Virus record (IMG/VR): IMGVR_UViG_3300030320_000049 | Reading direction: 5' to 3' (one strand) | From: a virus | Length of the DNA: 64,000 nt | Shown here: positions 30,368 to 30,481 of the stretch, one piece after another | Numbering within the stretch: the first letter of the stretch is position 1 | How the letters are laid out: every line of letters starts with the position of its first letter | Made by a program: the position numbers and the translations under genes | Notes under the pieces: model-generated | What the model saw: the letters and a program-made list of their open reading frames with translations, nothing else | What the model was told of the DNA's origin: nothing | The model's database searches: none

Positions 30368-30481
30368 TGACGAGGGATGGATTCGAACCACCAACCTATG
30401 CCTTGTAATGGAGTAAATTGCTATTATAGTCACAAACATGACTAATATTCTCATCGCTCTGTCCAATTGAGCTACCTCGTC
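30368..30481 (-). tRNA. tRNA-Val(UAC) interrupted by a 40-nt insert in the 5' strand of the anticodon stem
   Basis: GACGAGG TA GCTC AATTGGACA GAGC G ATG[40 nt]CC ATTACAA GGCAT AGGTT GGTGG TTCGAAT CCATC CCTCGTC A. Deleting 30412-30451 gives a perfect 74-nt cloverleaf. Confidence 0.65.
30412..30451 (-). other. 40-nt intervening sequence inside tRNA-Val
   Basis: AGAATAT TAGTCA-TGTTTG-TGACTA TAATAGCAATTTACT (tRNA strand). Shares CATGTYTGTG hairpin and TTTACT end with the neighbouring tRNA-like RNA. Confidence 0.55.

Follow-up and report, generated by a model that had tools for sequence, protein, structure and literature searches.

The 64,000-nt stretch of viral DNA analysed here (IMG/VR record IMGVR_UViG_3300030320_000049; "the window" below means this whole stretch) carries on its minus strand a tRNA-Val(UAC)-like gene of which the anticodon stem is split by an insert of 40 nucleotides (nt), and, immediately downstream of the tRNA cluster, a gene for a Ro60-like protein. 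By analogy with the known Y RNAs, we consider it reasonably probable that the interrupted gene specifies a non-permuted chimera of a tRNA and a Y RNA, the inserted module of which would bind the neighbouring Ro-like protein. The insert is regarded as a putative protein-binding Y-RNA module because its motif is common to non-tRNA RNAs that flank the Ro60-like gene, both in the window and in unrelated phages.

The interrupted tRNA-Val gene and its insert

Read along the minus strand, the gene consists of a 5' part (GACGAGG UA GCUC AAUUGGACA GAGC G AUG), the insert (AGAAUAUUAGUCAUGUUUGUGACUAUAAUAGCAAUUUACU), and a 3' part (CC AUUACAA GGCAU AGGUU GGUGG UUCGAAU CCAUC CCUCGUC A). The Rfam tRNA model matched positions 30368-30481 from end to end (model positions 1-71) with 48.7 bits (gathering score, 29; expectation value (E) = 2e-7 window-wide). 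In this alignment 51 nt were placed where the model holds 11, so that the insert is 40 nt long, and it lies between anticodon-stem positions 29 and 30. The D loop has GG, the T loop is UUCGAAU, and the cloverleaf scores above the gathering score of RF00005. The boundaries are unique because moving either junction destroys the stem AUGCC/GGCAU. The same boundaries and size of the insert, as well as the tRNA-Val(UAC) that its removal leaves (perfect 5-base-pair stem AUGCC/GGCAU, U33, UAC, A37), had been proposed in an earlier reading made from the letters alone (hereafter, the sequence-only reading), and the Rfam alignment agrees with them. As encoded, the anticodon stem is not continuous but split by the 40 nt, and the unconstrained minimum free energy fold formed no anticodon arm. 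A pairing of AUGAG with CU(C)CAU across the junctions, also put forward in the sequence-only reading, finds no support in the comparison of clades, being impossible in sister clade B (GUA, then an insert AAAGA...UCUUU, then CC). ARAGORN, which had been suggested as a check, called four ordinary tRNAs in the window and not the interrupted gene; as far as ARAGORN and Rfam find, the interrupted gene is the sole Val tRNA gene within the 64-kb window. When ARAGORN was run over every possible deletion it was too permissive for the definition of junctions, and a strict cloverleaf scorer was used instead. Besides tRNA, no Rfam family was matched in 30200-30700 at E up to 1, whether YrlA, Y_RNA, a ribozyme or an intron. 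Cores of small self-cleaving ribozymes (hammerhead CUGANGA/GAAA, pistol and twister) were sought by eye in the insert and none was seen, the space being too small for two ribozymes. A group I intron was considered and rejected, since the insert is 40 nt long, lies in the stem and has no Rfam intron match.

A pattern scan of IMG/VR found the interrupted Val gene in at least 67 contigs, from gut phages with genomes of about 80 kb; the insert is kept in about 100 related gut-phage contigs, and the gene is also found, with a 48-nt insert in the same place, in GenBank MT838485, a record from human faeces with about 82% identity. On these sequence comparisons, chance occurrence of the interrupted gene is excluded, because it recurs in at least 67 viral contigs with compensatory changes. 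The 31 distinct sequences of the Val chimera fall into two clades, clade A, which holds the window (AUG, 40 nt, CC...GGCAU), and clade B (GUA, 41-48 nt, CC...GGUAC), and the compensatory changes are located at 27:43 and 29:41 (across the insert), at 2:71 and 4:69, and in the T stem. The sequence CC-AUUACAA-GG is unchanged between the clades, which is not significant at a divergence of about 20% (0.8^11, about 0.09). A search of related phages for the tRNA with and without the insert, as the sequence-only reading had advised, thus yielded the insert-bearing form only: in the 2.9 million viral contigs of IMG/VR, no insert-less allele was found in the Val family (none in 71 GAGC-N4-CCATTACAAGG loci) or in the GCU family described below (0 matches). 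Several relatives deviate from the common form. Two of them (L002 and L034) have a recombinant acceptor stem, GACGAGG with CCUUGCC, with an A2-C71 mismatch; L066 is rearranged and truncated, with GGCAUAGGUUG duplicated; the anticodon loop is AUAACAA in L109 (UAC to AAC, the codon box being kept) and is rewritten around UUUAAAA in L115.

Every insert is made up of a basal helix, an internal loop and an apical hairpin. The strands of the basal helix open and close the insert (the 5' strand A/G-rich, the 3' strand U/C-rich) and their sequence is clade-specific; the 3' strand of the internal loop has ACAGCAA, replaced in some copies by ACUGCAA and in the window by AUAGCAA; and the last two pairs and the loop of the hairpin, CA-UGUUNG-UG, are invariant. 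The motif always starts 6 nt past the final GUG that closes the hairpin loop, giving the module a fixed spacing, CAUGUUNGUG-N6-ACWGCAA. The 6-base-pair hairpin with the loop UGUUUG noticed in the sequence-only reading was recovered and shown to covary: over its six pairs, 30 diverse copies were 97% paired with 42 double (compensatory) changes, and none of 500 shuffles scored as high. Separately, CTTACAGCAA was tried as a phage promoter or processing repeat and rejected, the 10-mer with one mismatch not being enriched window-wide (10 vs 4.9 expected); the CTTACAGCAA signal is confined to the surroundings of the Ro-like gene and recurs in unrelated phages.

Over the 310 nt or so ahead of the start codon of the Ro-like gene, the module or its motif occurs at four sites (Table 1). 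Element 2, a second tRNA-like RNA, starts 1 nt past the Val gene; in it the module replaces the anticodon arm (GAACA-UGUCUG-UGUUC, 3 nt, then ACUGCAA at 30310-30316), and it was matched by the covariance model R1 at 30304-30340 (28.1 bits, E = 1.7e-6). Its acceptor stem covaries from G-C to A-U in a relative (L001), and among relatives the element is either there or missing as one unit. In leader unit 1, the final two stem nucleotides, UU, adjoin the motif, and relatives show a G-to-A change opposite U; leader unit 2 ends 2 nt ahead of the ribosome-binding site of the Ro-like gene.

Table 1. Features of the window around the interrupted tRNA-Val gene and the Ro60-like gene
Feature	Position	Strand	Basis
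tRNA-Val(UAC)-like gene, 5' part: acceptor 5' strand, D arm, position 26, anticodon-stem positions 27-29 (AUG)	30452-30481	-	Rfam tRNA alignment, sequence, cloverleaf parse
Insert, putative mini Y-RNA-like module: interrupted basal helix AG/AAU/AUUA, apical hairpin, internal-loop motif	30412-30451	-	Covariance model R1, 40 bits, E = 2e-10; at least 67 contigs
Apical hairpin of the insert, UAGUCA-UGUUUG-UGACUA	30427-30444	-	Covariation (alignment A1); pattern match 30431-30440
Motif AUAGCAA, window variant of consensus ACWGCAA	30418-30424	-	Comparison of inserts
tRNA-Val-like gene, 3' part: CC, anticodon loop AUUACAA, GGCAU, variable loop, T arm, acceptor 3' strand, discriminator A	30368-30411	-	Sequence, Rfam alignment, cloverleaf parse
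Element 2, second tRNA-like RNA: acceptor stem, D arm, T arm	30277-30366	-	Minimum free energy fold
Leader unit 1, long-range, Y-like: stem UGGUGCUU/AAGCAUCA around ACAGCAAU	30213-30274	-	Covariance model R1, 15.6 bits
Leader unit 2: stem GGACAC/GUGUCC around UUACAGCAAC	30141-30202	-	Sequence
Ro60-like protein gene, 483 amino acids (aa), DUF2828 + DUF7788 + vWA	28673-30124	-	Pfam; phrog_850 "RNA-binding protein"
Ordinary tRNA genes of the cluster: Met, Met, Gln	30541-30612, 30903-30975, 31188-31260	-	ARAGORN, Rfam
tRNA(UCA) and the sole terminator-like hairpin of the unit	28541-28612 and 28518-28540	-	ARAGORN, Rfam, terminator scan
RtcB RNA ligase	24108-25310	-	Pfam 4e-64; phrog_1075; about 5 kb from the Val gene

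Linkage of the module to a Ro60-like gene

All open reading frames (ORFs) of the window were compared by tblastn with the module loci, of which 5-15 kb were examined, and the Ro-like gene was found to travel with the module; its product is 60-69% identical in lineages of which the terminase is only about 30% identical. The DUF2828/vWA gene was present in 119 of the 135 loci with a tRNA-embedded module, most of the others ending before the gene, and in 0 of the 136 chance-like pattern matches. Where the gene lay within the DNA examined, the modules were on its strand in every case (146/146), at a median distance of 317 nt from the gene start, 143 being upstream and 3 past the start. The seven true matches of the module that came from bacterial genome bins, of Lachnospiraceae, Acetatifactor and other Firmicutes, all adjoined the gene, which suggests hosts of the Lachnospiraceae type. 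The clearest exceptions to the linkage are L259 and L265, in which the module lies in a tRNA-like RNA (acceptor GGGGGUAGA/UCUACCCCC and a T arm) and DUF2828 was not found in 11-14 kb.

A structure model was needed for the link of the protein to Ro60 because sequence searches against PDB sequences, with the protein alone or with the family profile, gave only vWA domains. The AlphaFold2 model (mean predicted local distance difference test score (pLDDT), 79.9; predicted template-modelling score (pTM), 0.70) has helical repeats at residues 29-276 and a vWA fold at 288-470. Full-length fold matches were obtained with Foldseek, the best being 9KOP, the Ro60 homologue from Thermus phage phiLo (E = 1e-6; template-modelling (TM) scores, 0.58/0.60), followed by 2NVO (Deinococcus Rsr) and then by 9NEP (Ro60 with misfolded pre-5S rRNA); the sequence identity to 9KOP over the Foldseek alignment is only about 16%. 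The 483-aa protein is, as modelled, Ro60-like in fold. One DUF2828 homologue (P0121, 575 aa) has PF01912 between DUF2828 and DUF7788, which may be a domain insertion or fusion.

Carriers of the module were sought with two patterns, the hairpin alone and CATGTTNGTG-N6-ACWGCAA; the hairpin-only and genome scans gave mostly chance matches, and the true ones were told by the tRNA context and the neighbouring gene. The module is present in many different phage tRNAs and tRNA-like RNAs, inserted after positions 26-29 or in the loop, and the inserts are 40-55 nt long and mostly in the stem. With the strict cloverleaf scorer, we assigned it to a class-I tRNA family of about 40 contigs with the anticodon GCU (insert of 45 nt after position 28; a variant, L239, has ACU), to an Ile-like tRNA with GAU (L198; 51 nt after 29), to a Pro-like tRNA with GGG (L248; 46 nt after 27/28), to an Asn-like tRNA with GUU (L106; 47 nt after 26-28), and to two RNAs with an unclear anticodon (L094 and L124; 49 nt, in or beside the anticodon loop). 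L284 and L347 have an acceptor stem, the module and a T arm only. The unrelated viral contig L106 (IMGVR_UViG_3300023371_000356) carries three module-bearing tRNAs in tandem, one of them the Asn-GUU-like one.

Homologues of the Ro-like gene at 30-40% identity were found in 701 GenBank phage records, and in mycobacteriophages the annotation is "Ro-like RNA binding protein". We studied the flanks of the gene in seven unrelated phages, namely Salmonella BPS15Q2 (Felixounavirus), Listeria AG20, Mycobacterium Wamburgrxpress, Vibrio ValKK3, Campylobacter F341, Bacillus MrDarsey and Enterococcus Porthos. The majority have the gene next to a tRNA cluster, with an unannotated gap separating the two, and the gaps carry between one and five units built as [stem 5' strand]-N1-3-ACAGCAA(A/U)-...-[stem 3' strand]. 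Across the seven phages, the flanks of the gene, taken as 800 nt on its upstream and 1200 nt on its downstream side, have 16 ACAGCAA motifs vs 0.86 expected (P about 2e-15), each directly 3' of a stem strand. Several of these flank units have the architecture of YrlA, with a T arm, an acceptor-like hairpin and a D arm enclosed in permuted order; such permuted forms stand beside the homologous genes of Felixounavirus, Enterococcus and Mycobacterium phages, and the Rfam YrlA model matched the mycobacteriophage unit (L277) with 39.8 bits (E about 1e-7), below its gathering score of 69. In BPS15Q2 (L276, NC_031939), four unannotated Y-like units, CAGAAGACC-N-UU-(A/U)CAGCAA...GGUCUGG, lie at 7710-8545 amid the FelixO1-type tRNA cluster, the last of which is YrlA-like, the T arm, acceptor hairpin and D arm inside it being permuted. 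Unannotated stem-ACAGCAA units were also seen between the tRNA cluster and the DUF2828 gene in Porthos (L402, 1880-2290), MrDarsey (L401, 738-2400), F341 (L400, 2320-2490) and AG20 (L278, 5640-5930); two of the Porthos units are YrlA-like, one of them with the motif variant ACAGCGA.

The proposed chimera and its rivals

As a chimera, the Val gene would be co-transcribed with the tRNA cluster and the following Ro60-like gene, as the common strand suggests together with the terminator scan, in which no terminator-like site was found on the minus strand from the Val gene down to 28518-28540. The ends of the RNA would be released in the fashion of a tRNA, by RNase P and 3' processing, and the RNA would fold into an L-shaped tRNA body in which the anticodon arm is a three-way junction. 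The branch (stem, internal loop A(C/U)AGCAA, hairpin CA-UGUUNG-UG) would serve as a dock for the phage Ro60-like protein, to judge from linkage and analogy, and we liken this docking to that of the GGUCCGA / GNCGAA / CGAA site of Y, YrlA and Yrl RNAs on Ro60. Because the module branches from the anticodon stem, the Ro-like protein would occupy the same end of the L shape as in YrlA. The tRNA body may then act as the tRNA-like domain of YrlA does, as a handle or gate joining the Ro ring to tRNA-handling or RNA-decay enzymes, and element 2 and the two leader units would be further copies of the same putative site. Several points weigh against such a chimera. What pairs the protein with the RNA is linkage and analogy; the motif ACAGCAA differs from GNCGAA, and neither YrlA nor Y_RNA of Rfam was matched in 30200-30700; and it is by fold comparison only that the protein family is tied to Ro60, the sequence searches having pointed to vWA domains. 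Moreover, the Val chimera keeps a perfect 5-base-pair stem, U33, UAC, A37, A73 and the pairing across the insert, as an eventual decoder would, while a tRNA-like scaffold needs no decoding features and element 2 is without them; and variable insertion points are also expected of a mobile intron.

A protein-spliced tRNA intron was the explanation favoured in the sequence-only reading: a phage or host endonuclease would cut both feet of the insert helix, and RtcB (of phage or host) would seal a decoding tRNA-Val(UAC). The released 40-mer may in such a case itself be a Ro-binding small RNA. Exact removal restores a canonical anticodon arm with compensation at 27:43 and 29:41 between the clades, A73 agrees with the identity rules for Val, variants stay within the codon box (UAC to AAC in L109 and GCU to ACU in L239), the insertion point varies among tRNAs like that of archaeal non-canonical introns, and the interrupted gene is the only Val tRNA found in the window. 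The RtcB gene that the sequence-only reading had placed a few kb away is indeed present about 5 kb off, but it is not consistently linked, being downstream in only 5 of the 37 loci with at least 7 kb of downstream sequence and absent there from close clade-A relatives. No conserved bulge-helix-bulge motif was found: the two junctions lie opposite one another at the base of a single helix, and the candidate pairing of the window cannot form in clade B. No splicing-endonuclease Pfam domain was detected among the 40 window ORFs scanned, and insert-less alleles of the Val and GCU families are missing from the viral contigs. The spliced junction gave 0 matches in the metagenome contigs of the Joint Genome Institute (JGI) and none in the viral contigs; both sets are mostly DNA, so that its absence says little. 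In addition, many carriers are implausible decoders, some without an anticodon arm; others have Ser or Leu anticodons on class-I bodies, or C73 with GUU or GAU, which by the identity rules of E. coli is a lead only. The unchanged anticodon loop between the clades is, as noted, not significant, and that of L115 is rewritten. We therefore hold splicing as such to be doubtful. It is unlikely, too, that the module is both a tRNA intron and a Y RNA, with a phage or host endonuclease cutting the helix foot, RtcB sealing tRNA-Val, and the released or circularised 40-mer partnering the Ro-like protein; the latter could in that case be a chaperone or licensing factor of splicing, giving a conditional tRNA. 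If this were true, protein-dependent tRNA splicing would for the first time be known from bacteria, along with a tRNA intron encoding a Y RNA.

The ACAGCAA units might instead be cis-acting signals, either operators for the Ro-like protein on its own mRNA or RNase processing marks of the tRNA operon, the tRNA-internal copy being a by-product that silences or times that tRNA. The closeness of leader unit 2 to the ribosome-binding site, the single motif of Vibrio phage ValKK3 in the 5' untranslated region and the location of every window copy on one putative transcript with the gene are all in keeping with this; however, FelixO1-like phages and mycobacteriophages have units downstream of the gene, between tRNAs, and many units lie inside self-contained tRNA-like RNAs, which would be cut away from the mRNA. 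The motif is common to phages of Gram-positive, Gram-negative and actinobacterial hosts, and its occurrence across such diverse hosts argues against a host-specific processing or promoter signal. Cis action thus appears to us decidedly unlikely. It is very improbable that a small mobile palindrome has turned the tRNA into a decaying pseudogene: the gene is missed by ARAGORN and a few relatives are damaged (L066 rearranged, L002 with a mismatch in the acceptor stem), but about 100 genomes keep it, compensatory substitutions being present in the insert as well as in four stems; neither the hairpin loop nor the motif varies, the partner gene is obligatory, and no empty site was found in the viral contigs. 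The suggestion of the sequence-only reading that the tRNA had been inactivated by a tiny mobile hairpin is accordingly contradicted by the covariation that maintains both the insert and the cloverleaf.

Comparison with known systems and the surrounding region

Ro60/Y-RNA particles are conserved from bacteria to humans, and the role and origin of the tRNA-like domains of Y RNAs are unsettled. Archaeal tRNA introns bounded by bulge-helix-bulge motifs may host functional small RNAs, for example the C/D box sRNA in pre-tRNA-Trp. YrlA RNAs are encoded on the same strand as and within 4 kb of Ro60 genes, and they mimic tRNA (PMC4201824). The Val chimera resembles YrlA (Chen et al. 2014, PMC4201824; RF02553) in lying a few hundred nt from a gene of the TROVE + vWA type on the same strand, in having the D arm, T arm and acceptor stem of a tRNA, in having a putative protein site made of a stem and a short purine-rich single-stranded motif that projects from the place of the anticodon stem, in the several Y-like RNAs per locus, and in the nearby RtcB (compare the Salmonella rsr-yrlBA-rtcBA operon). 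Unlike YrlA, it is not permuted, so that the RNA ends in the acceptor stem and the putative site is a closed 40-nt branch; it keeps a complete anticodon stem-loop; its motif is ACAGCAA instead of GNCGAAN0-1G, though equivalently placed just 3' of a helix; it has the invariant apical loop CA-UGUUNG-UG; and its putative partner is a protein of the DUF2828 family, for which HMMER gives no link to Ro60. The Rfam YrlA model has no match at 30200-30700, and we did not file the RNA under that family because the YrlA motif and the permuted topology were looked for and were not found in it. In the Thermus phage phiLo, a CGAA bulge mediates the binding of two upstream Yrl RNAs by the phage Ro60, which also recruits the host PNPase (PMC12135203). 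This system (phiRo60 with Yrl1/Yrl2; Hu et al. 2025, PMC12135203; 9KOP, 9L5Y) is likewise a phage system with the RNAs upstream of the gene, and the stem-bulge-stem with a 4-nt core motif of the phiLo Yrl RNAs is similar in shape to the window module; Yrl1 and Yrl2 are, however, free-standing, have the motif CGAA and do not lie within tRNA genes. With the archaeal non-canonical introns, the insert shares a short insertion in the anticodon arm away from 37/38, a variable position, a structured and probably functional RNA, and an RtcB-type ligase in the system, whereas there is no bulge-helix-bulge, no EndA-type endonuclease was found (40 ORFs), there are no intron-less paralogues, and the setting is bacterial (phage). 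The group I introns of bacterial and phage tRNA genes also interrupt the anticodon region, but they are longer than 200 nt, self-splicing and located in the anticodon loop.

Y-like RNAs beside phage Ro60 genes are already known (PMC4201824, PMC12135203). Our literature searches brought up no earlier account of phage tRNA introns with RtcB, of DUF2828, of tRNA genes that are otherwise canonical and non-permuted but bear a Ro-type site as a branch of 40-55 nt, or of the signature ACAGCAA / CA-UGUUNG-UG or its pairing with the DUF2828 family in gut, rumen and cultured phages. The more than 130 phage loci with a putative Ro-type site inside otherwise ordinary tRNA genes would represent a third, non-permuted architecture, which resembles a missing step between tRNA and Y RNA. 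They also provide a candidate recognition motif for the large DUF2828 family, namely a stem with ACAGCAA, plus the CA-UGUUNG-UG loop in the compact form; among the phages that encode members of the family are the FelixO1-like, P100-like, K-like and KVP40-like ones, which find use in therapy and biocontrol. With one protein and two RNAs, a 40-mer and a 114-mer, a cheap system would be available for studying the use of tRNA mimicry by Ro-like proteins in infection. Should the module be excised, this would be a new kind of bacterial tRNA splicing. As for annotation, tRNA finders miss such genes, and the flanking Y-like RNAs go unmarked in phage annotations: the candidate partner RNAs are unannotated in the seven phage records examined.

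The tRNA(UCA) gene directly past the Ro-like gene is of the opal-suppressor type (labelled SeC by ARAGORN), with the loop ACUCAAU and a C at the expected U33; there is no sign of UGA recoding, because the window ORFs read through normally in code 11. A 94-aa ORF for Tad8, an inhibitor of type II Thoeris (25881-26165(-); Pfam 8e-31), sits between RtcB and the Ro-like gene, and for that reason the region resembles an anti-defence island; it is speculation that the surroundings (tRNAs, RtcB and Tad8) fit a role in RNA repair or counter-defence. A 196-aa ORF at 52205-52795(-) has a weak match to the GIY-YIG nuclease domain (E = 1e-3, below the Pfam cutoff), which was not counted as a splicing enzyme because this type is that of DNA homing endonucleases. 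The genes for a tyrosine integrase, a replisome organiser, YopX and two SSB proteins (40199-41509, 42541-43461, 46491-46952 and 61951-63214, all on the minus strand) are those of a temperate Firmicutes-type phage.

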